DNA of 64,000 nt from Podarcis muralis. Lineage: Eukaryota. Within the stretch, counting starts at the first letter, position 1, and every line of letters starts with the position of its first letter. The DNA is taken from NCBI RefSeq assembly GCF_964188315.1, contig NC_135658.1:58156001-58220000 (forward strand), written 5' to 3'. The notes beneath the pieces are model-generated. The model saw only the letters and a program-made list of their open reading frames with translations. It had not been told where the DNA came from and did no database searches. This document shows positions 9,801-61,097 of this stretch, piece after piece. The translations under genes were made by a program, and so were the position numbers.

Positions 9801-11087
9801 GTAAGCAAGCATTAAGGTCTAAAGTAGACTATTAAATCCAAATGGGAATGCCAATTTTAAAATAAGGAAATAATTTCATTTATATCCAGTCCAAAACATT
9901 AAGATGTCAAAATATAGACTCTAGCTCTGAAAATGCAGTGTCAAATGAATCAGCATTATAGCCTTTCTTGCAGCATAATAATGGTTAAAACTGTCCAGAA
10001 AATTAAATGGTCATATCTAGCTGCATGCTCCACAGGTTGATGCCGTTTATCCATGCTGTAAAAGTGCAATATTCTACTTTAGAAAACCGGAAGCAGGAGC
10101 TCTCAATACATTAGTGGGATTTGCAGCTCCAAAAAGCCACACTCTTCAACTGATATACATATTCATCCCTACTATTTATTTCCCTGTTTACCTCCTCCCA
10201 CCCTGTTCTTTCCCCTCCCTATCCGGCCATCTTGGGCAGTCAGGAGCAGCCATTAGTTAACTAAATGACAGGACCAAGAACTTTTTTAAATATAGGAACA
10301 AGATTTCTCTTCACACGCTCAGGTGAGCAGCAACAGCCTCTCCCCCATGGCCTGACAAAACAGCATGATGAGGCGAAAAGCCTGGGAGAGAAGACTCACT
10401 CAAGGAAGATGCACTTGGGGAGGAAGATGGCTCGAGAGTAAACAAATCACTTGGCGACTGACTCCCCAAAGTGACACACCATGGAAGAAAAGGGATCCCG
10501 CTTCTTCTAAAGCCCTTCTTTCGTGCTTATATGCATTAAGTTGGGTCGCTTCGGTCCTGTCCAGCTTTATGAGTAAATATGAGCAAAAGGGCTTTAAAAA
10601 GCCAGGGGGGGGGGGAGGTCCAAGGTGGCCAATGGCAGATAAGGAACGCCCGATCTCCCGATTATTCGCGAGGTTGCTCCCAGCTGGAGGGATTCAGGCC
10701 AGATGCGCAGGCACTCTCTGTCCTACTTTTTGGACAAAGCCCAGAAAGTGACCGAGAGCAGCTTTCCACGCCACGCGCCCCTCTCTTCCCCCTCCGCGCC
10801 CAGGGGAGCAGAGGGAGGCACCTCCGGGCACCACACGCGCGCCAAGAGAGCCATTCTCGTCCGAAAGCCAGGGAAAGAGGTGGTGGCCACGCAGGGCAGG
10901 CTCGACCCAAGTCTCCTGGCGAGTCCCACGGGCGCGCTGCTGCGGCGGCGGTTTAATTCCTCCAGCTCTGCTCCCCCCACACACACAACCCACACACACA
11001 CAAGCCCACACAACACACGCGAGGGGAGGGTGGCTCCCTCGTCGGTTGCCTCCTCCCCACCCCCACCAGAGCCCAATCCCCCCTTAC

Positions 11088-11151
11088 CTTTAACAGCAAG
11101 GCCTTCGTTCTGGCGCCATCTTCATGAAGCCTCTGAAATCCGAAGAGTCGG
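11088..11151 (-). CDS. KDM6A: Lysine demethylase 6A (UTX), coding exon 2 (64 nt); exon 3 lies beyond the left edge
   Basis: Acceptor cttctgcag|, donor aag|gtaagg. Encodes (S)[21 protein letters not shown] versus human [21 protein letters not shown]. The 64-nt length matches the recalled human exon 2. Confidence 0.96.
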
Positions 11152-11447
11152 CTGCAGAAGGGGGGAGACGGGAGAGAGACAGGCTGAGAAAAACAGCCGC
11201 GTCCGCCGAGAGGCTGCCCCCCTCGCCCGCCCCACACGGACGCCTTCATCCGCTCCCTCGCGCTCGCCGCCCGCGCTCCGACCTGACGAGAGCACCACAA
11301 CCGCCGCCGCTCTTTTTTATATTCCCCTCTCTCTCTCTCCCACACACACACACACGCGCGCACACACACACACAAGACACACACACACACCCCGGCCGAG
11401 CGAGAACACCGGACGAGCCGGAGCGCGGCGGCTGCCGTTGGGGGTAC

Positions 11448-11608
11448 CTGTCGAGGCCGGCGAGGACTTCTCTTTCCTCCGCTGTCAGGCTGGCGAAGTC
11501 CTCCTCGCTCTGGCCGCTCGCTTTCCCCGCCGCCATTTTCTTTTCCTCATCACCGAAAGAAGCAGTAGAGGCGGCGGCGGCGGCGAGCGACACTCCACAC
11601 GATTTCAT
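11448..11608 (-). CDS. KDM6A: Lysine demethylase 6A (UTX), coding exon 1 (161 nt)
   Basis: [53 protein letters not shown](S) matches the KDM6A N-terminus. Donor cag|gtaccc; 296-nt intron 1. Confidence 0.97.
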
Positions 11609-12099
11609 GGAAACGCAGCGCAATTAACTCGCGATCGCAAGGCCCCCCCTCCCCGCGCGCCCACCCCGAGGCCCCCCCAGTGCCGGGCGGGGCGGGGTGC
11701 CCGACACACACACGCCACCAACACAACTTTTATTACAACAACAACAGCCGGCAGGGAGGGGGAGGGAGAGGGAGAGGCGGGGGGGAGCCCCGCTGCTCGG
11801 AGGAGGAGGAGGGAGGGAGGGAGAGAGGGAGGGAGGGAAGGAGCCCCAGCGCTGGAGACGCGGGGGGGAGGCAGGAGGGGGAGGAGAATAAGGAGGAGGA
11901 GGAGGCGGCTGCTGTTGCTGCTGCTGGCGGCGGTGACGGCGGCGGAGCAGTGTTTACATCGCTGCTGAGCCGCCAGCCCCGGCGGCGAGGAGTGAGTGGA
12001 GTCGGAGTGACAGGGGCCCGCGCGCGCCCGCGCGGGGTGTATTTGTTGCCTGTACAAACTTCCCCAGCAGCTGCACAAAGTTGTTGTAATTGTGTCACA
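11609..12099 (-). other. KDM6A: KDM6A 5'UTR, with probable TSS near 12099
   Basis: The minus strand starts GTGTGACACAATTACAACAACTTTGTGC..GGGGAAGTTTGT, which I recall as the 5' end of human KDM6A mRNA. The GCTGCGTTTCC ATG context is also shared. Confidence 0.75.
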
Positions 12100-12162
12100 C
12101 AGCGAACCCCACGCCGCCACCGTGACCCCCCCTCCCCACCCCGCTTGCCTGTGCCCACGCAG

Positions 12163-12212
12163 CCAATCGCCGCGCCCAGCCGCGCCCACGTGACCTTTGT
12201 TGACTTACGTCA
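12163..12212 (-). promoter_or_regulatory. KDM6A: KDM6A proximal promoter motifs: CCAAT, E-box, CRE-like
   Basis: CCAAT 12163-12167, GTCACGTG/CACGTG 12187-12192 and TGACGTAA (TTACGTCA on +) 12205-12212, clustered 60-115 bp upstream of the inferred TSS. Confidence 0.6.
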
Positions 12213-13299
12213 GTCATAGCGCTCCTCTACCGCTACGCTCGAGCTTGGTAGCCGCGCTGCCTTTCACGTAGCGGCTACGCTGCGGAGTTGGGAAGCTGTA
12301 CTTCGGGTACCCCGATTGCAGCCGGAGCGCGGAATCCTCCATGTGTGGCCGGGGCGGGGCGGGCGGCGTTAGAAACTTCCTCTACTTTTCTAAAAAGTAG
12401 AAAAGGAGCCAAACCTTCCTCACACCCTGTCGGCACAGCATCCACATTTTCGGGACAGATATTCAACGGATAGAGACAGCAGAGGTTTCTGCGGAAGCAT
12501 TTCTTCATGTCATTCAGAGTCTGGCAGGGCTTTGAAAGCCTTATGACCTCCCGCTCGGAAGAAGGGCAGGGATTGAGAAGCCAAGTTACTCAGGATTTAA
12601 AAACCTTGGCATTTACTGTGTTGTTGTTTCTAGGTAGTTCTGCAGGCAGAAATTCACCGCATGTGGCCTTTCCCTGTTCATAGAGATGTAAAAAGCTGCA
12701 CTGTTGAATTTTTACCTGCTTTGCCGACTTTCAAAGAGCAAATTGGTTCTCGGACGGACGAAGAACACAGGATATGAAAAACGAGAGTATATTTCTAATC
12801 ATGAGATTCGTAGATTCATTATTCCGTATCAACCCGTTTCAGTTTTGTCATGGCACGAGGTCAAACGTGTACTTTTGTGTGTTAAAGGACCTATACACCA
12901 GCCCTCTTCATTTATGTGGCCAAATACACACTTTCCTTTTCTGTTCAGTTTTTTAAGCTGCCCACTTATTTATTTATTTACCGAAATTGATATACTGTAC
13001 GTACTGCTTTATAGGTGCGTTACATAACTGGTTACAAACACGTTTCCGTCGGCCTAACGAATCATACCGTTTGCTTAAGAAGTGAGATGTGCTTTAAATT
13101 CTCCCAGTTGTGTAGCACGACTTGGGAGCAAGACGGGGGAGCACTGAATTTCCAAAACTTTATTATATAATTTTTAAAAGCAATTCAACACTGAATGGGG
13201 GCGCAGGCCCATCCAACGAGCAGAAACCATTGTGGGAGAACTGTCACGATAACTTTAAAACCTGCAACGAAATGGGGCCGTGTAACCCGGTTCTATTTT

Positions 13300-14500
13300 A
13301 TCTGAGGTTGGTTTCCGCGCAGTCCCTGCGTCTAGGACTCTTTCCCCGCTAGTGGAGGAGTCTTACAGAACGTCAATCGAAAACCGGAAGTTTAAGTCGC
13401 TTTCCCCCCTATCTCTTCGGCTTCCGCCCTCATCACTGGCCGTACGCCATTGGTTGAGAGGGCGGGATTTATGTACACTATGGGCTGTTATTCAACCGTC
13501 AGTGAGTCAATCAAGCGACTTTGTCAGTTACCGAAGTAGCAGCAAGTTTGTATGCGGCCTTTAAATTAGGTGCGGGGAGGCCCCAACGGCGGCGGCGGCG
13601 GCGGCCAGCAGTTGCTCGAGGGGTAATAGGTTTGAGATTGCGTGCGCATAAATGGCTGCTGCGCTTAAACAGGCGGCTGGTCTGGAGACGCTGCTAGGGA
13701 GCCTGTGCGCGTGAAAACACGCGTGGCCGTTACTGCCCCCGTCGCCGGCCGCCTCCTGCGCAGAAGGGTGCGGGGAGGGGGCGCTCTTCTCGGCCAACGG
13801 CTGCGACCCCCGCCCTGCTTTTCTCCCGCCTTCCCTTGGGCCGGGTCTGGGGCGTGGTTCTTCTGGCACCAACGAATAATAATGGCTTCCCTTGCGCGGT
13901 GCGTGTGCGCGCGAGGAGAGAGAGGAGTGGGCCGGGGCTTGGAGCCGAGCCCGCCGGGACGCCTCTGAGGGGGCGGTTCGCGAAGCGGCGGCGGGGCGTC
14001 CCCTGCTAAGCCTGCGCGCGGCCGCCTTGGGCGCAGTGGCTCCGCTTCCTCTGCGGCGGCGGCGACAGCGGTTCTTCCCCCGAGTCCCTCTCAGCGAGGG
14101 CGAACCGTTAAGTTGCCGCCTCGGAGGAGCGACCCGCCGTAATTGGCCGCGGGAGGGGCGAGGGGACGACTTCCAGAAAGCCAGCCCGGGCTCGCGGCTC
14201 CGTGGGCAGGCGCCTTCCCCTTTCCTAGGAAGTGGGGTCAGGGAGCAGCAAGCCCCGCATTAGGCCTCCGCACTCCCCCCCCCCCCCCCTCACAAAAAAA
14301 GCGACTCCCAAGTTAATGTGTTTCTTCAACCCGAAGCAGAAAGCAGCCTTTCCGTGTGCGTGGAAGCCCCTGGCTCCAGGGAGAACGTGTGACAGAGACC
14401 GCTTCGGGAGGGCTTCCTCCATTTTCCTTGCTGATTACCTTTCCTGAGAATAGACACGTGTTAGGGTGGAGAGCGGCGGGCCTGGGCTGTGAAAAACAGG
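13300..14500 (+). promoter_or_regulatory. Second CpG island with promoter-like motif cluster; no recognisable gene
   Basis: ETS CCGGAAGT 13384, ATTGG 13449, GGGCGGG 13460, TGAGTCA 13503, donor TAG|GTGCGG 13569/70, NRF1-like TGCGTGCGCA 13639, YY1-like AAATGGCT 13650. Separated from the KDM6A island by about 0.9 kb of AT-rich DNA. Confidence 0.65.
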
Positions 14501-35413: not shown

Positions 35414-38127
35414 AGTAACAAACAATGCATGTTACTACTTTAGTTTCCAAAAAGAATGTAAGACCCTATTTGTATGTTACAAAAGTGGGGTGGTAGTCAA
35501 TTGAAAAAGTAACTATCTGGGCATCTTTCCATATAAGAAAGCAATTTCTTTGAACATTTCCCCAAGTAATCCATTTTCAGCCAAGCCAATCAAGATGTAA
35601 TAACATGGCTGCAGCAGTGAAGAGCAACTTAAACATCAGAATTTTACCAAAATTTCACTTTACAACGTGCCCAAAGCAGTTTGCATACAGCTTCTCACCC
35701 AACTTTGCAAGATAGGCCAGTGTCATTATTCCACTGCTACAGCTGTAGTGGCTTGCCTCAACTTTTCATTGAGCTGAGATCTCATTTGAACTAGGCGTTT
35801 CCCAACTTGTAGCTCAAGCTCCTAAATACTAACTACCTTCAAGCTGCATGAAAAACCACTTCATACAAACATCTTTGGTAGAAGATGCCCACCATGGGAC
35901 GACTTTTCTATTGTATGATAACCTGTTTGGTGACCTGCTCCAGCCACTTGGCAAGATTATGGTTTGCTATGCCTGTTGTGGGGGAGCCCTGCCGAATTCA
36001 GGGTGAGTCAAGAGCTAGTAATCATATTGTGTTTTCAACCTATTACTTGCCCTCAGCTTCTTGAGCTCTTTAAGATTAAAGTATGTATGCATTAAGTGCA
36101 TGGTTTAAAATATAACAGAAGCCCCTGACATTCATATAATTGAGTAAGTCTGGCAAAAGATTGGGAGAAGCACTGAAACCTGTTTCTCAAAGTCCTGTGC
36201 TGGTTCAGGTTCTTGACTTAACTGGAGCATGGGCTGACAGAGAATTAAACTGTCTGATTATGAGCCAATTCCCAATATAATGTGTATATCCACAGGCTGA
36301 CTATTGGAAGGCTTCCACAGAAGCAAATCACACACACACGCAAAATGTAATTGGAAGAAGTCATCCATGCAGCTTGCTCAAAGCCAATTGCATGAGCAGA
36401 AGCTGGATAAAAACACCAGATCCAGTTTATGGGATAATCTTTGAAGAGGTGGGCTAGAGATAACCCATTCAAATGAATCCCTGCCCCCGTGGTCTACTGG
36501 GAGCATTCCAAGAAGACATCCGTGTTGTTACATGCCACCCCAATCTCCAAGTGGTGCGAGACTCCAGGGGTTCCAGGTGCTTACTCAGGGCCCAAGTTTC
36601 CTTTTGGAAATGAGACACAGCAGAGATAAACCATATGATATATGGTTTATTTATACATATATCCAACCTGAGCCTACAATGGAGGAGTTCAAAGCATTAA
36701 CACCCTGGGAGGGCCTTGCTTCCTCCATAGCTGCAGCCTTGGATTCAAATAGAAATCAACCATCACTCTCTCTCTCTTCCCAGTGTGCTACTTTTTCCAT
36801 TTCTAGCTCACCACTCACCTTTCCCTTCTCACCTTTGTTCTTCTAACTACCAGTGAATTAAGAGAAGGCCATCTAGGACAGTCTCACTTCCTTTGTTCCC
36901 TTAATGGCCCATTACCTAGGATATCAACTCATCAGGAACCTAGCCTGTATTATATTTTTACATTTGCTGGATTCAGGCATTAGCATGCAGTCTACTCGCC
37001 CCCCTTAACCTCATAACACTACAACTTACAATAGAAATAATTGAGAATGATGTGTATTGCAGACTAAAGGCTCCTCCAGATGACTTATTTATTGAACATT
37101 CATCCTGATCTGCTTGCACAAAGCTTACACAGAGGTCAAATTATATCCGGTCTTAATTGAGCATTTGTTCTGATTTGTTTATGGAATGGGTATACTGTAC
37201 CGCAATGAACATTCATTCTGCAGTCATCCTGCATTGCTTGAAGGGTGTTCATATGTCTTCCACCCTTTTCCAGTGCAATTTCTTATCACTTTCCAAACCA
37301 CAAAGGGTCCAGTTTAAAACAAAATGGATTTGTTGTCTCTGCTTAGAATAGCTTGTCTCCAACTTGGATTGTAATCCGAGTCTGGATTGTGCATTATGGG
37401 CACCCTAATTTCTGCATTGCTTCCTCTAATTTTGCTACTTGGATCCTTTTTACTAAATCAGGTTTCCCTAAGCTTGGATCTGACAAGATTCTGAAGTAAC
37501 ATATATAGTCCATATAGCTTGCTATGAGCTACTTCATAAGGTTGGCAGATTTCAATAGCCGTTTCAAAGGTGAGCTTTGGGCTTCTTAGCAGGCTTTTCT
37601 AGAGTACAACTACTCTGATACCAAGTACAATTTGGGGTCTTATCATAAGAACTATCAGCTCCCCAGAATTGCACCTGAATGCAGAAGAAATCGTATAGAA
37701 TTCATCTATAGGCTCTCCCCTCACTTTCTCATACATGAACACTAAACACTATTCTTCTTAAAAGCTTAATTGCTTTTTAGGACTCACTACTCTTTCACCA
37801 GTATATCATAATTTGGAGAGGGTGGCGGAGCTGATGTTAGTGTTTAACTTAACTGGACATGTTTGAACACATTTTTAACTTTACTACTAGCTGTTACTCA
37901 GCCTCTGTACTTAGATTATCAGTTAGGACTCTCTTGGAGTATCCCTACTTGAAGGCTTAAAATAATAAAAGTATTCTCTAACAAAGGCCATCCTAACCTT
38001 CTTTCTTTCTTTTCCAATGACATCAGGAAGATGACACCCACTTTCCTCAAATATGCCAGGAAACAGACCACTAATCAACATCCGCAGATGAGCTATTAGA
38101 TTGATGAACAAGGGGAAAGCCTCAAAA

Positions 38128-38497
38128 TTGAATGGTTTCTTTAAATGTAAAGGTTCATCATTGTTCCACTCAATGTGTATGTCTTTAAGGGGCCAGAGCA
38201 AGATAACGAGACCCAACTTTAAAGCTGTGAAACATAGCAGGTGCTGCTGAGTTGTATTTGATTAAGGTGTGTCAGCATTTGGGTTTAGTATATAAGGAGC
38301 AGCACCTAGCTCTCCCATTACCCTGGGGTTTGGGTTGGTGGTTGGGTCTGGTTTGTTGTTAATGTATTTAGTGTAAATGGAGTTTTTGTTTTTCTTATTA
38401 AAACCTTGTTTAAGTTATTTTTGAGTCCTTTTCATTTTTAATGCATGATCTCCCCAGCAAGCTATCTGCAGCGCTACCATACTGCAAATAGCCAACA
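38128..38497 (+). repeat. 5' LTR (lacks the first TG dinucleotide)
   Basis: Matches 42699-43068 base for base by eye and ends CAACA. TATATAA at 38289-38295, ATTAAA at about 38397. Confidence 0.95.
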
Positions 38498-38502
38498 TCT
38501 TT

Positions 38503-38517
38503 GGTTATGGGCCCAGC
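38503..38517 (+). other. Primer-binding site complementary to the 5' half of initiator tRNA-Met
   Basis: GGTTATGGGCCCAGC is the reverse complement of GCTGGGCCCATAACC in the anticodon arm of tRNAi-Met, the same PBS type as Drosophila copia. Confidence 0.9.
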
Positions 38518-38615
38518 TGCTGAGTGGATGACTGCATATTTTTGGACTCTGAGAAAGGTTTGAAAACTCCTTCTCCTGTTAGTGTAATTTTTTGTGGGTC
38601 TGGAAGAGTTCCAGA

Positions 38616-41600
38616 ATGGTTGACCGGGTTCCTGAAGCTGAGAAGGCTCTGGTCTTCCCACAGCTAACAGATGAGAACTATAGTTTATGGTCTTTTCGGG
38701 TGGAGGCGCTTTTGACCTCTAGAGAAGTATGGACCTATGTAACTGATGACCCTCCTGACCCTGTAACTAATGCTTGGTCGAAAGGAGATGCAAAAGCCAG
38801 GGCGATAATTAATTTGGCAGTCAGCGACCAGCAAGTAGTCTATATAAGAAATAAGAAAACTGCCAAAGAAATGTGGGACAGTCTTGCAGCAGTGCATGTT
38901 AGAAAAGAGTCAGCATCTGCATTGACGTTTTTCAAGCAGTTGTACCAGACGAAGTTGCAGCCTGGTGGTGATTTGGCAGCACACTTGAGACGTCTGGAGG
39001 CAATACGCGGCGAATTAATTCGAAGGGACATGGAGATACCTGATATTCAGTATGTTTTTATCATCCTTTGTTCCCTTAATGAGGACTTTGATGGTGTAGC
39101 TAGCCAGATATCTGCTGTTCCACCAGCACAATTAACTGTGGAAGGGGTAACGGCAAGATTAATGGGCGAGTTGGATAGAAGGGAGGCTTGTGCCATAAGC
39201 ACTCCTATTTCCAGAAAGAATGAGGAACGCCATATGCAAACCTGTGGTGATACAACTGCATTTAAAGCTGCAAAGCGTTGTTGGTTCTGCAATAAGCAAG
39301 GACATTTTGCAAAGGACTGCAGAGCCAAAAGAAAGCAAAGTACTCCCAAGTCTGTTTCTGTTCGTCAGTCACGGTTGTCAGCCCAACAGCAGACATCGTA
39401 TAGTAAAGACAGAAACGAGCCGCGAGCTTTTCATGCTTGGACTACAAATCGTAAAAGAATTAAAGATGCCAAGTGGAAGTCTTTTATTATAGACTCTGGA
39501 GCATCTCAGCACATCTGCAATGATCGAAGCTTGTTTATTTCTTTCGAAGAGGAAATTGGTAATGTACATTTAGCCAATTCACAAGTCTTGCAGTCGCTTG
39601 GCAGAGGTACTGTTAAACTTGACTCTTTAAACATTACAATAGCAAACTGCATTTACTGCCCGTCAGTGGACAATTTATTGTCAGTAAGGTGCTTTGCTCG
39701 TCAAGGCATAACTGTGCGTTTCTTAAAATCAATGTGTGAGTTTTTTGATGGGAACAAACGTTTATTGTATGCCCGGGACTCTGATGGTTTATATAGACTG
39801 TATTTTCGCACCTACTCCCAATCGCCTATAAATTGCAGAGCAGCACAGTCAAGCCAGGGGTTGAGGAATGTAAGGCCTCATTCCGGGTGTGTCCATGAGG
39901 CGCACAGAATTCTGGGACACCTGAATTTTGCTGATGTAATTAAGACAAAGAATATCGTTAATGGCCTCAACTTAAAACCATGTAAATTCTTTATGCAATG
40001 TCTATCCTGTTGCAAGAATAAGATTAAGGTTGCACGCAAGGGTAGGTGCTCAGATAGGAAAGTAACTGAACCATTTGAGCGTGTACATTGTGATTTAGTT
40101 GGGCCACTCCCACCATCATTAGGAGGTTCTAAGTACTGGCTTACTCTGATAGACCAGTATAGTAGATACTGTTGGACTTATGCAATAGCTGAGAAGTCCC
40201 AAGCATTTGAAAAGTATAAAGTTTTTTGCAACTGGGTAAAAACGCACTTTAACAAACCAATTAAGAACCTATTTTCTGACCGGGGCGGGGAATTTGTTTC
40301 TGAGGATTTTGAGAAATTCCTGGAAGCGCAGGGGACTACTCATGAGTTATCTTGCCCCCGAAGTCCCTGGCAAAATGGGCTTGTTGAAGTTGTGCAGCGT
40401 GACCTACAGGCAGGGGTTAAAACGTATCTGCATGATGCTAATCTGCCCAAAGACTTTTGGGCTGAAGCACTTAATGCATTTTGTTACGTTAGAAATCGCA
40501 GTTATCATACTGGTTTAGATGTCACCCCCTATGAGAAACTGTTTAAAAAACGCCCTAATCTGAAATACCTCCGCATTTGGGGTTCAGATGTAATTATGCA
40601 TTATCCTGCTAAGCAAAAATTGGGTGAACGTAGTGTCCAGGGAAAATTAATGGGCTACCAGCAGGGGGCGTACAGAATTTACATACCAGCAACTGGCAAA
40701 TTTCATATTACCAGAAGCATGATACAAACTGTAAATTGGAATGGAGTTGCTATCTTCCAAGATACTGATGGTATAGATAATACTGAGGAAGAAGAGGAAG
40801 AAACAGCAGAAGAAGCAGCAGGAAATAGTGCTTCTGAATTAATGGGAAAAGACAAAAAGCCTGTTGAGTCTGATAAATTGTTTGATGATTTAAAGTCACA
40901 GGCACCCGAGGGGAGGTTAGATTCTCTTGATTTTTCTGACCGAGAGCTTAGCCTACAGGCACCTCTTCAATCTGACAATGATTTACAACCTGAAACTAGT
41001 GGTTTACTTAGTCCCATTAAGTCTGAGAAGTCTGACTCTCCTTCTGGACTGAGACGTTCAGATAGAAAGAGACAGAAGCCACAACGATTTGCAGATGAAC
41101 ATTTTAATACTGTGTATGCCAATAAGGTAGTTTTTGAGCCAAAAAGCTACAGTGATGTTCAGAAATTACCTAAGCAACAAGCTGCAAATTGGTATAAAGC
41201 TATGAACTCCGAGATAGCTTCTTTAAAAGAGCATAACACTTGGTCTCTTGTACCACAAACCCCAGATATGAGACTTATTGATTCGAAATGGGTTTATAGA
41301 GTTAAAACGAATGACAAAAATGAAGTTGTAAGGTACAAAGCAAGATTAGTTGCTAGGGGTTTTCAACAAATTCCAGGCGAAGATTATGATTTGTGTTATT
41401 CACCAAGCGTAAAATATGAAACAGTTAAGCTTTTGTTAAAAGATGCATCACAGCGTGGACATTCCGTTTATCACCTAGATATAAAAACTGCATATTTGTT
41501 TGCAGATTTAAAAGAACAAATTTTTATGCGTGTTCCTGAAGGCATAGACGCCGCTGAAGGTTTGGTATGCAAATTAAACAAATCCCTTTATGGTCTGCAC

Positions 41601-42680
41601 CAAAGTGGAAGGAATTGGCACCAAACTTTAGCAAAAGAATTGCTGGATATTGGTTTTTCACAAGGAAAGGCAGACAATTGTGTGTTCATAAAGGAAAAGG
41701 CAAACTCTGTAACAAAAATATGTGTGTATGTAGATGACGTATTAATTTCTACAAAAACTAAACAGGAATATGAACAGGTGGTATCACAGTTACAGAAGAA
41801 ATTTGATGTAGTGGAATTAGGCATAGCTAAAAATTACTTATCCATGCAAATTGAGAAAGGCAAAAATGGATCTTTTCTGGTTCATCAAACTGCAAAAATT
41901 GATGATCTTGTTGAAATGCTATGTTTAGAAAATGCAAATGGGAAGGAAACGCCTATGGTGTGTGGTTTCACCTTTACAGATGAAGACAAGCCATTTCCTA
42001 ACAAAACTTTGTATCGTTCTGCTATAGGCAAGCTAAATTTCATTCAAAGAATCTCAAGACCAGATATAACTTATGCTTTTCACTTTCTGGCAAAATTTGT
42101 GGAAAAGCCTACTACACAATGTTTCTCTGCTCTTAAGAGAGTGGTAATGTACCTTAAACATACCAAACATTATAGGTTGCAGTTTACAACATGTATTGAC
42201 AAAGGTTTTGAAATTTTCTGCGATGCATCTCATGCAATGGAACAAAATAATTGCAGGGGTGTGTCTGGTATGGTGTTTTGTTATAACGGTTGTCCATTTG
42301 AATGGAAGTCCCAAACACAAACCATTATTTGTCTCTCCACAACAGAAAGTGAATTATGTGCATGCGTTCAGGCCACTCGTGATGTAGAATGGTATCTGCA
42401 AGTGTTTGCAGACCTACAGATGCAAGTAACACTACCAGTAAAAGTTTACCTTGATTCCCAGAGTGGACTTGCTATCCTGTGCTCAGAGACCAATACGCAG
42501 CGCACTAAAGTCTTAAGGTTACGTTTAGAATTTGTAAAGCAACTAATTGCTGATGAAATGGTTGTATTTGAATATGTTCCTGGTGACAGTCAAATTGCGG
42601 ACATTTTTACAAAAGCACTTCCAAAGGTTACACATGAAAAACATGTGCAAAGTATGCTTTCTGTTTTTGTTCCACAATGA
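38616..42680 (+). CDS. Copia Gag-Pol polyprotein, 1354 aa, uninterrupted
   Basis: ATG in strong Kozak context (AGAATGG). Gag N-terminal LTDENYSLW; zinc knuckle CWFCNKQGHFAKDC; protease IIDSGAS; integrase HRILGH..CLSC and D-D-E (HCDL, SDRGGEF, NGLVE); RT YKARLVARG, HLDIKTAYL, LYGLHQS, YVDD; RNase H FCDAS, TTESE, YLDSQ, ADIFTK. Confidence 0.97.
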   Translation: MVDRVPEAEKALVFPQLTDENYSLWSFRVEALLTSREVWTYVTDDPPDPVTNAWSKGDAKARAIINLAVSDQQVVYIRNKKTAKEMWDSLAAVHVRKESASALTFFKQLYQTKLQPGGDLAAHLRRLEAIRGELIRRDMEIPDIQYVFIILCSLNEDFDGVASQISAVPPAQLTVEGVTARLMGELDRREACAISTPISRKNEERHMQTCGDTTAFKAAKRCWFCNKQGHFAKDCRAKRKQSTPKSVSVRQSRLSAQQQTSYSKDRNEPRAFHAWTTNRKRIKDAKWKSFIIDSGASQHICNDRSLFISFEEEIGNVHLANSQVLQSLGRGTVKLDSLNITIANCIYCPSVDNLLSVRCFARQGITVRFLKSMCEFFDGNKRLLYARDSDGLYRLYFRTYSQSPINCRAAQSSQGLRNVRPHSGCVHEAHRILGHLNFADVIKTKNIVNGLNLKPCKFFMQCLSCCKNKIKVARKGRCSDRKVTEPFERVHCDLVGPLPPSLGGSKYWLTLIDQYSRYCWTYAIAEKSQAFEKYKVFCNWVKTHFNKPIKNLFSDRGGEFVSEDFEKFLEAQGTTHELSCPRSPWQNGLVEVVQRDLQAGVKTYLHDANLPKDFWAEALNAFCYVRNRSYHTGLDVTPYEKLFKKRPNLKYLRIWGSDVIMHYPAKQKLGERSVQGKLMGYQQGAYRIYIPATGKFHITRSMIQTVNWNGVAIFQDTDGIDNTEEEEEETAEEAAGNSASELMGKDKKPVESDKLFDDLKSQAPEGRLDSLDFSDRELSLQAPLQSDNDLQPETSGLLSPIKSEKSDSPSGLRRSDRKRQKPQRFADEHFNTVYANKVVFEPKSYSDVQKLPKQQAANWYKAMNSEIASLKEHNTWSLVPQTPDMRLIDSKWVYRVKTNDKNEVVRYKARLVARGFQQIPGEDYDLCYSPSVKYETVKLLLKDASQRGHSVYHLDIKTAYLFADLKEQIFMRVPEGIDAAEGLVCKLNKSLYGLHQSGRNWHQTLAKELLDIGFSQGKADNCVFIKEKANSVTKICVYVDDVLISTKTKQEYEQVVSQLQKKFDVVELGIAKNYLSMQIEKGKNGSFLVHQTAKIDDLVEMLCLENANGKETPMVCGFTFTDEDKPFPNKTLYRSAIGKLNFIQRISRPDITYAFHFLAKFVEKPTTQCFSALKRVVMYLKHTKHYRLQFTTCIDKGFEIFCDASHAMEQNNCRGVSGMVFCYNGCPFEWKSQTQTIICLSTTESELCACVQATRDVEWYLQVFADLQMQVTLPVKVYLDSQSGLAILCSETNTQRTKVLRLRLEFVKQLIADEMVVFEYVPGDSQIADIFTKALPKVTHEKHVQSMLSVFVPQ

Positions 42681-42696
42681 TGAACCGCAGGGGAAA

Positions 42697-43068
42697 TGTT
42701 GAATGGTTTCTTTAAATGTAAAGGTTCATCATTGTTCCACTCAATGTGTATGTCTTTAAGGGGCCAGAGCAAGATAACGAGACCCAACTTTAAAGCTGTG
42801 AAACATAGCAGGTGCTGCTGAGTTGTATTTGATTAAGGTGTGTCAGCATTTGGGTTTAGTATATAAGGAGCAGCACCTAGCTCTCCCATTACCCTGGGGT
42901 TTGGGTTGGTGGTTGGGTCTGGTTTGTTGTTAATGTATTTAGTGTAAATGGAGTTTTTGTTTTTCTTATTAAAACCTTGTTTAAGTTATTTTTGAGTCCT
43001 TTTCATTTTTAATGCATGATCTCCCCAGCAAGCTATCTGCAGCGCTACCATACTGCAAATAGCCAACA
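42697..43068 (+). repeat. 3' LTR (372 bp, TGTTG...CAACA)
   Basis: Perfect 5-bp terminal inverted repeat, preceded by the purine tract AGGGGAAA (42689-42696). Confidence 0.96.
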
Positions 43069-49783: not shown

Positions 49784-50695
49784 TAGAATCATAGAATCAT
49801 AGAGTTGGAAGAGACCACAAGGGCCATCGAGTCCAACCCCCTGCCAAGCAGGAAACACCATCAGAGCACTCCTGACATATGGTTGTCAAGCCTCTGCTTA
49901 AAGACCTCCAAAGAAGGAGACTCCACCACACTCCTTGGCAGCAAATTCCACTGTCGAACAGCTCTTACTGTCAGGAAGTTCTTCCTAATGTTTAGGTGGA
50001 ATCTTCTTTCTTGTAGTTTGGATCCATTGCTCCGTGTCCGCTTCTCTGGAGCAGCAGAAAACAGCCTTTCTCCCTCCTCTATGTGACATCCTTTTATATA
50101 TTTGAACATGGCTATCATATCACCCCTTAACCTCCTCTTCTCCAGGCTAAACATGCCCAGCTCCCTTAGCCGTTCCTCATAAGGCATCATTTCCAGGCCT
50201 TTGACCATTTTGGTTGCCCTCCTCTGGACACGTTCGTTTGTCAGTGTCCTTCTTGAACTGTGGTGCCCAGAACTGGACACAGTACTCCAGGTGAGGTCTG
50301 ACCAGAGCAGAATACAGTGGCACTATTACTTCCCTTGATCTAGATGCTATACTCCTATTGATGAGGCCCAGAATTGCATTGGCTTTTTTAGCTGCCGCGT
50401 CACACTGTTGGCTCATGTCAAGTTTGTGGTCAACCAAGACTCCTAGATCCTTTTCACGTGTACTGCTCTCAAGCCAGGTGTCACCCATCTTGTATTTGTG
50501 CCTCTCATTTTTTTTGCCCAAGTGCAATACTTTACATTTCTCCCTGTTAAAATTCATCTTGTTTGTTTTGGCCCAGTTCTCTAATCTGTCAAGGTCGTTT
50601 TGAAGTGTGATCCTGTCCTCTGGGGTGTTAGCCACCCCTCCCAGTTTGGTGTCATCTGCAAATTTGATCAGGATGCCCTTGAGTCCATCATCCAA
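49784..50695 (-). mobile_element. Young 5'-truncated CR1 LINE (RT C-terminus and 3'UTR)
   Basis: LIKFADDTKLGG...FNREKCKVLHLG...EKDLGVLVD...[15 protein letters not shown], continuing in a second frame after a small deletion near 50232. (ATTCTATG)n tail; GTACCA duplicated at 49778-49783 and 50696-50701. Confidence 0.95.
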
Positions 50696-52419
50696 GTACC
50701 AAACACTTTCCCTTCTGGTTTGCCTGGTAGGGTATCGTGGCTATTTGTTGCTCAGCTGTAGAACAGAGCAAGATACATTGGTTTTAATAAGGTTGTGGGG
50801 CATGTATGGTGGGAACGTATGGAAGCTCAGGGGAGAAATGGACTTGAGTTTATCACAACCACCTTGAGCAAAGGACTGTAGAGGGTGTCTGAAGGCTGAG
50901 TGGTCTGATCCTGCTGTTGGCCCAGCTCCCTTTTATGCTCTTTAAAGGGCTGTTGCCCAATTCTGCCGTCCTTGGCTCCTAGTGTGTGGGGAAATAGGAA
51001 GGCACTGAGAATGTGTCTTTCAAGCCAGTTTTTCTCTTTTGCTCCCACACCCATGCCATTGCTTAAACATCTAGCCTGATAAACAATTCTGAATATTAGG
51101 AAAGCTTGTTTGCTATTTTTTGTGACATTTTGCTTGGTCCAATGAAGGTATGAGCCTATCCTGGCATTTGGAAGCAATACTAAAAAGGGACAGTGTTTCT
51201 GTTCTTTATTGTACAATCTCTTGGCTCTTTTGTAGGGGAGTGACTCATGATTTACTAATGTTTGGATTGGCACAGAAAATGTTTTGGGAGCATTTGTATA
51301 GCATAGAACATGGTTCCAAGCAGAAGTAACTACATCAATTTTCCCATGGGAATTGCTTTCTTAAGGTTGTATATGTTGCATCTCACTGAAACGCCATCAG
51401 AGGAATATCCTATGTGAAAGGCAATGTATTGAACAACTTGCCACCATTTCCCCTTTGCCCCAGAATTATATTACGTCGGGGGACTGTGGGAAATTAAAAG
51501 GATCCAGCCACTTGATGCTTCTTGCAGTCATGGCTAGAAAAAAAACATTTATGGTAGGCCAAAGATAGGCCTTGAGAGCTGGTTCAAGGCTTTCAGGTGC
51601 TGGTGCTGCCCCAACAGTGCCTCAGCTCAGCATTACTATTTCCCTCAGGAATTAAAACGGGGGACAGGAATGTTTAGATTTTTGGGGTGGTGAGGGCTAT
51701 GGGGCAAGACCTTTGGTGAAAGTGGACTTGGGCTATGTGGCACTGTAATAAAGAACATAACATGTTTACAACCATTGTTTCAAGTGATGTTAATTATCAT
51801 TAAGCATCAGGCAGGAATATTATAAAATGAGGAACTTAAGACAACCATGACTGTTTAATTATTTCTAAGTCAAAGTTAGCCACACTCGCATCCTTATGCC
51901 TGTAATTTTGAATATCTCTGTTAATGAACTTCTCAAATGCTGTGCTCTCACTTTTGGTTGCTTCTTATGCTTTTGCTAGTTCTGGCCCTTTAATTGATTT
52001 ACTTATCTGTTCATTCACATGAATAGCAAGAAGGCAATTTAATTCAGGGATGAGAAAGAATGCTGAATTGTAGTTGTAATCAGAAGCCTGAGATTAATAA
52101 TTCCTAGTTCACTCCCAAGAAACACCAAAAGCAGGCAGAAATCGGCTCCTCCAAACAACCAGAAAACAACAACACTGCATCTGAAAAGTTGATTCCTGGT
52201 GTGTGCATTCAGAGAATCCAGTGTTATGTGCACGTACAGGGAATTTCCTACCCAGCAGCCTGTGAAGTAATATACTGTAATGGGCTCTAGTGATCATGTG
52301 GTCCTTGCCAAAAGCCTAATTCAATTCTGTTCCACCTTGCCCTGGCGAGGCTCACCTAGTGCCTACTCTGGTGTCTTTTTATTGCCCAATCCTTTTAAAC
52401 TCTATTTCATTGTCTGGTT

Positions 52420-52799: not shown

Positions 52800-53650
52800 T
52801 GTTTGGGATTCAGGGAGATCTGCGCTGCTCTGCGGCGCTTTGCGCGCTCCAGAAACATGGGGCGGCTGCGCAGCGCTTCGCTTTCACAGCGCCCAAGGAA
52901 CCCGGATGCTCCGGTTCTCCGGGGAGGCCCTCTTCCTCGGCACACTCTATCCGTTTCGCTTGAGGGAGAAGGGAACTCAAAACCACAACTCCCATAATCC
53001 CGCGCGAGTAGCTTCTGCGGCGACGCGACTCCATGACAGCCGGGGGCCCCGAGGAGAGTCTTACAAAAACGCTTTTACTGGTTTTCTCCTCGGGTCGCGC
53101 ATGCGCTGCTGCCGGAGCCCTCGATTTTTTTCTTCCCTGAGGGGGGGCGGGGGTGGAATGTTGTAGAGCGGCGAGTGGGCGGAGCAGTTGCGGCTGCCTC
53201 TCTCTCTCTCTCTCCCCCCCGCCCCGCCCGCCCGTCCTCCCCAGTTGCTAATATGGCGTCTCGGAGAGCTCGCTCCGCCTCAGGTCAGTTGAGAGCCCGG
53301 CTTCCTCCAGGGCCGCCTGGCGCAGTTTCCATGGCGCTCGAGCCTCCCAGAGCGGAGATGGCCTGCCTTGCGCAGAGAGACGGAGCCGGTTGATGGAGGA
53401 GCTGGTCAGTCGTCTCGATTTGGGAGCCCCACTCGCCCGCCTCTTCCCGGGCTTCTCTCTCTCAATCCTGCCCTGCCCTTTCGCCCACCCCCAATCCGTG
53501 GGGCTGGGGCGGCCTGGCTGGATGCGCGCGGCTCCAGAGTAGGCGGGGCTTGCGCAGACCCCTTGCCCAAGGGGGCTGAGGGTGAGGGGGTACAAATGTA
53601 TTAAGAGGCGGCGAGGGTCAGGGCGCTTAGGGGCCTCCTCCAGCCAGGAC
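52800..53650 (+). promoter_or_regulatory. FUNDC1: FUNDC1 CpG island and promoter with NRF1 palindrome
   Basis: GC/CpG-rich. GCGCATGCGC at 53097-53106, GC boxes at about 53144 and 53177, ZNF143-like ACCACAACTCCCA at 52982-52994. Confidence 0.8.
53253..53283 (+). CDS. FUNDC1: FUN14 domain-containing 1, coding exon 1
   Basis: ATGGCG start in the CpG island, MASRRARSAS, phase-1 donor CAG|GTCAGT that fits exon 2. Confidence 0.85.
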
Positions 53651-58840: not shown

Positions 58841-58916
58841 GTGTGCAGGATTTTTATTCCAGAAGGTTGGAAAACTTGCAGCGACTGCAGTAGGCGGCGG
58901 CTTTCTCTTGCTACAA
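58841..58916 (+). CDS. FUNDC1: FUNDC1 exon 3 (76 nt)
   Basis: [25 protein letters not shown]. Long pyrimidine acceptor, donor caa|gtatgc. Confidence 0.98.
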
Positions 58917-60074
58917 GTATGCAGACTTTAATTATTTAGAAAGTGCTATGATTTGAATATAGGCAAGTTAACTGCTCAGTAAACAGAAAGGGAAGTGGAG
59001 GCTGTAACAACAGCTGAATGGTTTTGCATAAAGTGGTCCCTGGAAGGTATTTCCCAGATCTCCTCTTGCTGGTGCAGCTCTGCTAAAATCCATGTGAGAA
59101 GAACCACAAAGTGCCCGTAATAAAACGTTAGAGTTTGGGTTGATGAAGTGTCGTTCGGTCTATCTTATCTCATTTACACACGCACACTTTAAAAATTAAA
59201 GTCTCTGTGAAAATCTCATTATGCTCATTTTGTAAATATGACTACACAACGTGAACATAGTTACCTTGTAACATCTAGCATTAAGAATTTTCCTGTCTCT
59301 TATTTAAGTATGAGACATTGAGGGGGCTATTTTGTAAAATGTAACATAGCAATCATAAGTGGAAAGTGCTATTTGCTCTGGCCAGGGTGGAACATGGAAG
59401 GCATTTTTTGTTATTGGGGAGGGGGGTGTTCCCCTCACTGATAGTTTTAATCCCTACCCCCAGTGTTGGGAATGAGTTTCAGGCTGGCTCAGTTAAGGAG
59501 ACTGACAAGGAAGAGAGAAGACTTTGGATTCAGCATTCCAGGGCAATATGATATGCCCCAGAATGCTGCTGAATGAGTCTCACTGCTGGTGGTACTTCTG
59601 TGCCTGTTGAGCTCTGGGTGGATGTACCAAGGGCCTCCAGTGTGGATGGACCATCCAACTAGTACAGCTTTTCCTTGCAAGTGGAGCCACACTTCCACCC
59701 CATCCTAAATGCCCCCCCCCCCCGCTGCAAGCCGGCCTTCAGCAAAGATTAGGATTCCTGTATGTAAATGTACCATTAAAGACATTATGACTGTAAGCCA
59801 AAAATAGATTCTATAAACAAACTGATAGGTTTTAAGTGGCATGCCCATAAATACTATTCTAGACTTTAAATATTTATTGCCATCTCTCTGCTGATTTATT
59901 TTAAAATTAAAAGTTTAAAGATATATACAGTCTAGGGGGATTATGTTGTTACAAAATGTGGAAGGTGACCTATTTTTAGCAGATAATAGTTTCCTAAATG
60001 AGTACATTTCCTTAAATGCATTGAGAATTTTTTTTGCTCTAGCTCTTCAGATGTCTGTCTTTTACTTTTCCTAG

Positions 60075-60203
60075 ATTGCTAGTCATAGTGGCTATGTACA
60101 GGTTGACTGGAAAAGGGTTGAAAAAGATGTAAACAAAGCAAAGAAGCAACTCAAAAAACGAGCAAACAAGGCAGCTCCTGAAATCAACACATTGATTGAG
60201 GAG
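60075..60203 (+). CDS. FUNDC1: FUNDC1 exon 4 (129 nt)
   Basis: [43 protein letters not shown]; cttttcctag| and gag|gtaaag. Confidence 0.98.
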
Positions 60204-61097
60204 GTAAAGCATGTCTTACTTGCTTTTGAATATTGATTTTGCTGCGGCCTTGATGTGATGTTGGGTTTCCAGGTGTTCCGTATCTTAACAACCTATGGTA
60301 TGTTAGATGACCCTTGTCTCCAGGAAAAGGGGTGCTGAGTAAAGCTTTGGGCTGCACACTCCAAGTGCTGTGCCCCAGATGGCCTTTGCTTTACCTTGGA
60401 CTTCAGCAAGAAGGGAGGGAATGCAGTCCCCACCCCCCATGGGAAGAGTCCTTCACTTGGGTATATTGCCTGACTTGAATGTTTGACTGTTTGGTGCCTG
60501 GAGGCCTTTTGACTGGTTCTATAGCATATTTTATTTATTCAATCTTCCATTGGCCCTTAAAGAGTCAGATGTCTGTATCCATGAAACAATTATATTTCCT
60601 TAGAAATAGGTTTTTATTTGAGAACAAATGGCACCTTAAAAAACTAAAAAAATGTACTTTGGTATAAACTATTAGCTCGGATGAACGGAGCATCAAATGC
60701 ACAAAACTGTATGCCACAATACATTTGTTAGCCTTTTAAAGGTGCCTAAGGACTGCAGATTTTCTGGCAACAGACTACTCTGGATTTTTTATTTAGGGGT
60801 TCAGTATTTAAAGTATTTATGATAAAACATTTTAAAGCATTTGAAATGTCACAGGGTGGTTGCAGATGCTTTCTACACAAGCATTATGGACTTATAATTC
60901 AAGACTAAGGTAGATAGTTCCTTTTTAAAACAATGAACAATCTTTCCACAACTAACAAAGCTCTGCCTAGAGTTGCAGTACTCTGTAACTCTGGTAGTTA
61001 TCTGAGTGCAAAAAGTATTTGTTTATTTAATTTTTATTTTATTTTTTTGCTGTAATGCTATTTCCACAGTCTATAGTGAACTCTCTTTCCTTTTCAG

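Follow-up and report, generated by a model that had tools for sequence, protein, structure and literature searches.

The window, a 64,000-nucleotide stretch of the Podarcis muralis genome, carries a full-length Ty1/copia LTR retrotransposon of 4941 bp, whose two LTRs flank a single internal region. The element is intergenic. About 10 kb downstream of it begins a FUN14-domain gene with exons at 58842-58922 and 60054-60248, and on its other side lies what we take, from the translation, to be a KDM6A-like gene, read from the minus strand, with exon 1 near 11246-11623. These two genes are divergent and have CpG-rich starts, at 10000-14000 for the presumed KDM6A-like gene and at 52800-53600 for the FUN14-domain gene. 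Two reverse transcriptase (RT) fragments elsewhere in the window, at 952-1806 on the plus strand and at 49861-50740 on the minus strand, presumably belong with the L2 and CR1 LINEs that they resemble.

All parts of the element read on the plus strand. A single gag-pol frame of 1354 aa without stops (38616..42680) occupies the whole internal region, and no env was found in the element. The Pfam matches along this ORF follow the order gag, protease, rve (PF00665), SH3 and RVT_2 (PF07727), with RNase H motifs last. The Gag capsid region and CCHC zinc knuckle span 38703..39320 (PF14223; CCHC at aa 222), the aspartic protease spans 39483..39707 (PF22936; DSG at aa 293) and the integrase, with its HHCC, rve core and SH3-like domains, 39891..40721. 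The latter retains H430/H435/C462/C465 as well as D493, D555 and E591 in the D,D-35-E arrangement (D-x35-E). RT (41235..41960; PF07727) has D955 and YVDD at aa 1038. The motifs at aa 1201, 1243, 1279 and 1328 (42207..42635), which stand without a listed Pfam match, we assign to RNase H.

The 5' LTR (38128..38497, 370 nt) has the CA end, lacks the terminal TG and contains a TATA-like motif at 38289 and ATTAAA at 38397. It is followed by a 5-nt spacer, TCTTT (38498..38502), which the junction analysis below predicts to be a cDNA-end extension trimmed by integrase, and by a 15-nt primer-binding site (PBS; 38503..38517) complementary to nt 25-39, the anticodon arm, of a host tRNA-Met(CAT) gene. 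At the other end, the polypurine tract (PPT) AGGGGAAA (42689..42696) adjoins a 3' LTR of 372 nt with TG...CA ends (42697..43068), 16 nt of sequence separating the latter from the gag-pol stop. Pairwise comparison of 38128-38497 with 42699-43068 gave 370 identical LTR positions, with 0 mismatches and 0 indels. A prior sequence-only reading had reported a stop-free ORF with the catalytic residues of all four enzymes, identical LTRs, a PBS and purine tract, the compact 3' end without env and a Ty1/copia identity; each of these was recovered here, the last through copia Pfam domains in copia order. The window LTR lacks a 12-nt unit of the commonest, 385-nt LTR, and one other locus, L060, has this unit in only one of its LTRs.

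With two LTRs, the order PR-IN-RT-RH, a copia-type Gag and RT, a PBS and a PPT, the element has the hallmarks of Pseudoviridae. Its PBS is predicted to pair with a short internal segment of initiator tRNA-Met (tRNA-iMet) and not with the tRNA 3' end, suggesting hemivirus-type priming. By analogy with Pseudoviridae, Pol II would transcribe the element from its 5' LTR, the transcript would be packaged in intracellular particles, the 5' half of tRNA-iMet would prime reverse transcription, and integrase would insert the cDNA after five surplus bases had been trimmed from its right end. From the intact motifs and the likeness of Gag to the Copia virus-like particle (VLP) protein, we infer both the formation of such particles inside the cell and reverse transcription. 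Lacking env, the element would spread only via the germ line and interbreeding.

Family A and its relatives in the genome

We call the family of the window element family A. In the 1.52 Gb of genome searched, exact junctions numbered 116 for PPT-LTR and 102 for LTR-PBS, alongside 306 exact LTR right ends and 719 candidates from an LTR search; the family comprises about 100-120 copies. We examined 101 loci, made up of the window, the 40 best RT/LTR matches and 60 loci from the LTR-PBS junction list, with 8 of the 102 LTR-PBS junctions lying outside this set. Two LTRs are present at 87 of the 101 loci and are identical to one another in 53 of these. An ORF of at least 1340 aa persists at 54 of the 101; the first 40 loci, being the top matches, are biased to young copies, and the ORF is kept in 17 of the 60 later ones. 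The sequence-only reading had proposed a young family with intact coding capacity and named genome-wide copy number and divergence as a check; these counts, with LTR pairs that are mostly young, bear the proposal out. Between young and old copies pN/pS is 0.23, which shows that selection for function operated in between, that is, purifying selection acted between the subfamilies. The synonymous share among young copies is no different for private and shared variants (p 0.41).

Perfect 5-bp target-site duplications (TSDs) flank 69 of the 87 two-LTR loci. Four further loci match at 4 of 5 positions, and 14 have none, a figure that includes the uncallable L105. Three bases outside the duplication there is a clear preference for G/C (64 and 63 of the 69 loci). 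The copies are unevenly distributed: contig C20 (30 Mb, 2% of the genome), which may be the W chromosome, carries 22 of 100 listed LTR-PBS junctions (p 1e-16).

Several loci depart from the standard form. L081, L086, L087, L097, L106, L108-L110, L113, L116 and L117 have all lost the same internal stretch of the RT region, about 640 nt long (window 41460-42097, limits placed using L146), and this deleted derivative likely moved in trans. Among these, L108, L109 and L110 on C20 have identical flanks, with a right 5-mer that is one base off the left one, toward the spacer sequence; their identical flanks indicate one insertion copied within a segmental duplication. At L021 (C20:9809500-9815100), a direct duplication of about 200 bp surrounds the insertion instead of 5 bp, resembling the long duplications of retroviral one-ended joining.

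The PBS of family A occurs at 768 genome sites, a few of which are tRNA genes. Of 20 sites sampled, 15 are copia elements, one from family A and 14 from four further families (B-E). The latter (L123-L140) are 29-39% identical to family A and have at least one ORF of more than 1300 aa each, LTR pairs that are 99-100% alike and the same half-tRNA PBS. Their LTR-PBS spacers measure 4, 3, 0 and 1 nt, respectively, compared with 5 nt in family A. Five families with spacers of 0, 1, 3, 4 and 5 nt in one genome represent a natural series on copia integrase trimming.

Insertion junctions

The 3' LTR of the window copy starts with TG at 42697 and is followed by GAACT, which has no left-hand repeat. Its 5' LTR is without TG, a detail overlooked in the sequence-only reading, and comparison of both flanks revealed no TSD. 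All 19 other LTRs of the comparison set carry the terminal TG. TG...CA ends and a 5-bp duplication, both typical of Pseudoviridae, are therefore present in the family and missing from the window copy, placing the defect in the junction of this one copy. The preferred G is found at +3 of the right end, and there is no S at -3 of the left. The right end was likely joined normally, whereas host end-joining likely repaired the left end, at the cost of the TG and of the duplication. For retroviruses, insertions have been described in which only one end is joined and the host repairs the other, with truncated element ends (PMC5041404, partial text). Alternatively, this left junction could stem from a small deletion at a later time or from faulty assembly. 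The flank at 38102-38118, 9 nt before the junction, resembles the stop-PPT stretch of the element (8-nt blocks 42678-42685 and 42689-42696); the likeness may be due to chance or may have aided the repair of the left end.

A different kind of junction recurs within the family. At seven right ends the LTR is followed by the spacer TCTTT and a non-G base, where 0.4 would be expected among about 204 host-side ends; L025 is an eighth right end of this kind. In all seven junctions with a placeable left end, a rule that excludes L145, the left 5-mer differs from TCTTT and the spacer occupies the place of the right-hand duplication, with the G/C preference kept at +3 in six and at -3 in five. Position 4 of the left 5-mer is T in 7/7 of these junctions versus 18/69 perfect duplications (p 2e-4, post hoc test).

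The spacer-retaining junctions likely record a 5-nt trim by integrase, for which they would be indirect in vivo evidence. We propose that the right end of the cDNA carries the spacer as five extra bases and that integrase trims five bases from one cDNA strand. The 5-nt flap of the other strand would equal the integration gap in length, and partial pairing with the target could let this flap be sealed in, replacing the target duplication. The addition of a non-templated A after the retained spacer was also considered and dropped, A being already the commonest base after perfect TSDs (28/69). A corresponding test in family C was weak, with two matches among about 165 host ends, of which one fits (CGAAG left, CGTAG right) and the other has no simple fit.

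A narrow literature search aimed at junction scars of a 5-nt trim found none described. Integrase cleavage is expected for the unusually long 5-nt LTR-PBS sequence of Sireviruses (PMC2829016, partial text), and one XMRV junction has been explained by an unpaired 5' base that may have changed the duplication (PMC2857682, partial text).

Age, activity and origin

For dating we borrowed a rate of 1.98e-9 per site per year (PMC8760935, partial text); the resulting ages take no account of reverse-transcriptase errors, and LTR and internal estimates lie threefold apart. The absence of differences over 370 LTR positions bounds the age of the window copy only to less than about 2.0 Myr. The copy has five private substitutions and differs from its nearest relative at 14 of 4199 sites; it is likely a few hundred thousand years old and probably inserted within the last half-million years. 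The sequence-only reading had called it very recently inserted, which holds for a young family and overstates what LTR identity alone can tell; the private changes and the nearest copy give the age stated here.

The young class comprises 68 two-LTR loci with 19 mismatches in 26142 nt, equivalent to 0.18 Myr, and 51 of the 68 LTR pairs are identical. The older class comprises 19 two-LTR loci with 58 mismatches in 7123 nt, equivalent to 2.1 Myr. Young copies have a median of 4 private substitutions per 4199 nt, the average of which corresponds to 0.56 Myr, an upper figure. The main burst took place roughly 0.2-0.6 Myr ago, atop at least 2 Myr of activity. We are confident that the window carries a full-length Ty1/copia element with intact gag-pol, one of some 100-120 copies, that was likely inserted in this 0.2-0.6 Myr burst from a lineage probably long resident in lizards.

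It is plausible, if somewhat short of an even chance, that family A is transposing now and that the window copy is very recent. The retention of the ORF at 54 of 101 loci and the 51 identical pairs among 68 young ones are in line with this. A 1301-nt contig from the DNA run X10 tracks the flank to 38129 and has its last 290 nt off the element, suggesting an allele that lacks the insertion; however, the X10 flank is 2.4% off the window, hence the empty site may be a lineage difference. Against current transposition, none of the pairs among the 66 young copies compared falls within 2 differences over 4199 sites. Moreover, CpG transitions account for 47 of 305 private changes, from only 78 CpGs, an excess indicating that the copies have aged in the genome.

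RNA bears on the same question from both sides. In the bulk run X23, 470 of 12.8 million reads belong to the family, and first mates are mostly minus strand in every internal bin, which would be sense in a stranded library of the common kind. Such a sense bias over the internal region favours present activity, but the X23 alleles fit the older subfamily (94-96%), agreeing with seven older copies at 13 of 18 sites, and not the young class. Family A is thus transcribed, with RNA reads that mostly match the older subfamily. The single-cell run X21 was too thin and carried no usable strand information. Of the "potentially active family" in the sequence-only reading, the intact autonomous copies stand; with no near-identical young pairs and RNA mainly matching older copies, current activity is plausible but unproven.

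Data from other lizard samples raise the question of how the young subfamily spread. In the DNA runs X1 and X10 the internal region reaches about 85-95x the flank depth, a rough figure that does not give a copy number. The dominant internal contigs of both runs carry the commonest letter of this genome at 10 of 10 sites among those listed. Among the matches listed, internal pieces of X10 differ from the window copy at 8 of 2567 nt, about what the variants of the window copy itself account for. The flanks, at one locus, differ from the window at 24 of 1011 nt in X10 and at 11 of 736 nt in X1.

We tentatively consider, as a rather unlikely course of events, that the young subfamily originated in a single lizard lineage, from which hybridisation carried it into others over the past few hundred thousand years. 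Elements matching the commonest letters of this genome at the sites listed, beside flanks that have diverged by 1-2%, point in this direction, as does the pervasive gene flow among wall lizards (PMC8760935, partial text). However, the contrast comes from one flank locus and two samples, where a deep or introgressed haplotype would look alike, and the comparison draws on 40 of 285 difference rows and 16 of 1369 contig pieces. Purifying selection would also slow the change of the element. Spread by hybridisation is compatible with, and not exclusive of, insertion in a burst from a long-resident lineage.

Joined to the junction data, it would give a bolder scenario that we regard as unlikely in its entirety. 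Hybridisation would have swept a still mobile copia subfamily, one of five families amplifying side by side in a single amniote genome, through diverged wall-lizard lineages during the past half-million years, while the integrase of this subfamily, trimming five bases, would leave a flap that fills the 5-nt gap and is sometimes sealed in instead of a target duplication.

As to origin, no named protein comes closer than P0121 and P0122, gene models of Podarcis lilfordi with 92% and 94% identity. Both are spliced fragments of family A, one of which is named 'effector 161-like'. Word-index and full HMMER protein searches, in collections that contain few squamate elements, returned no named non-lizard relative above about 37% identity (background 27-37%); the sole closer full-length match is an ENA protein at 39%. 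An RT-RNase H tree of 47 rows, picked from 486 by score and label, places family A with families B and C and protein P0001 (support 100/100) and unites the five host families and two ENA proteins in one clade (97/89). In quick trees the five-family clade (10 rows) is recovered at 88 and 89 and is not starred. In the 47-row tree it sits within an animal clade that includes Anopheles, Aedes, Solenopsis and Xenopus rows (100/99). Forcing family A together with the mosquito, ant or Xenopus rows was rejected (p-AU 8e-32, 2e-4 and 1e-4), these groupings having been chosen after the tree was seen.

The position of family A suggests that its lineage has likely been long resident in lizards, with an old independent entry possible. 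The sequence-only reading had suggested an RT phylogeny and saw a candidate for horizontal acquisition, partly on account of a Drosophila-copia-like architecture. The tree, which keeps family A in one clade with four families of the same genome, does not support this, and a single ORF with a half-tRNA PBS is common to all five families here and hence no mark of a Drosophila origin. A recent horizontal transfer into this lizard lineage from an arthropod or fish is very improbable. The long branch of family A (0.74) and its low identity to other host families (38-39% to its sister families) would suit such an event, and an old horizontal origin of sarcopterygian Mtanga elements is left open by PMC11889832 (partial text). 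Against it stand the lack of a named non-lizard protein above about 37%, nearest relatives in the same genome, the rejected insect and frog groupings, a residence over time documented by older copies of up to about 2 Myr and by the P. lilfordi copies, and the occurrence of copia in 23 of 24 squamates (PMC11889832, partial text).

Contamination or misassembly as the source of the element or of its LTR identity, the refutation envisaged in the sequence-only reading, is hardly credible: the left junction is atypical and no spanning read was seen, but members of the family, each with its own flanks and TSD, are spread over many chromosome-scale contigs, host genes flank the window copy, and the family is also present in DNA samples X1 and X10 at the rough depth given above.

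Comparison with known systems

Klai et al. 2025 (PMC11889832, partial text) report copia elements in 23 of 24 squamates, which they rank as the richest copia hosts. Podarcis muralis has 1004 copies, grouped into 44 clusters, in their survey, and Zootoca vivipara has 304. The sequence-only reading had treated copia as a minor, little-studied class in squamates, which this survey contradicts; its statement that copia is absent from mammals and birds agrees with PMC4350176 (partial text). All 750 amniote copia elements in supplement 6 of the survey belong to the Mtanga clade. Family A shares its superfamily and host group with these Mtanga elements of Lepidosauria and may already be among the published clusters; in our tree, which has no labelled Mtanga reference, it groups with Anopheles, Aedes and Xenopus (100/99). 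Unlike the present analysis, the survey, in its available text, does not treat individual lizard families for age, junction structure or expression.

An intact young copia element in an amniote is thus mostly ordinary, and since squamate copia is already in print, the headline does not change what is known. What interest remains stems mainly from the junctions and from a possible passage of the young subfamily from one lineage to another. In addition, family A offers a well-dated, copy-rich system for the study of amniote germ-line control of half-tRNA-primed elements, and its insertions could serve as markers for lacertid population work.

The corn snake Copia element (PMC4657000 and PMC11948899, partial text) is likewise a young squamate copia, with 85 near-identical copies. 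It underlies alleles of OCA2 (amelanistic) and CLCN2 (Stripe) and has been proposed to be currently active, whereas no mutant alleles are known for family A. Set beside each other by description, the two elements differ in length, the corn snake element measuring 5832 bp and the window element 4941 bp.

Drosophila copia and the genus Hemivirus share with the window element a single gag-pol ORF, no env and a PBS matching a short internal segment of initiator tRNA-Met. Priming by such a short tRNA segment defines the hemiviruses (PMC8515867, ICTV profile). The window Gag matches the solved Copia VLP protein, and family A Gag the Drosophila copia Gag, only distantly (70 bits). The 5-nt LTR-PBS spacer is a trait of the window element that sets it apart from Drosophila copia, and 'Copia' is a small clade separate from Mtanga in PMC11889832 (partial text).

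A 5-nt LTR-PBS spacer is also found in Sireviruses, which differ in being restricted to plants, often env-bearing and much larger, with a PBS that corresponds to the tRNA 3' end (PMC2829016, partial text). We considered and rejected an assignment of the window element to Sireviruses, given its lizard host and, as regards an env-like third ORF, the 16 nt between stop and 3' LTR.

With respect to the junctions, the closest parallels are aberrant retroviral insertions, in which one-ended joining is accompanied by truncated ends or long duplications (PMC5041404 and PMC2857682, partial text). Family A differs from these cases in that the whole 5-nt spacer replaces the right-hand duplication, at seven checked natural insertions.
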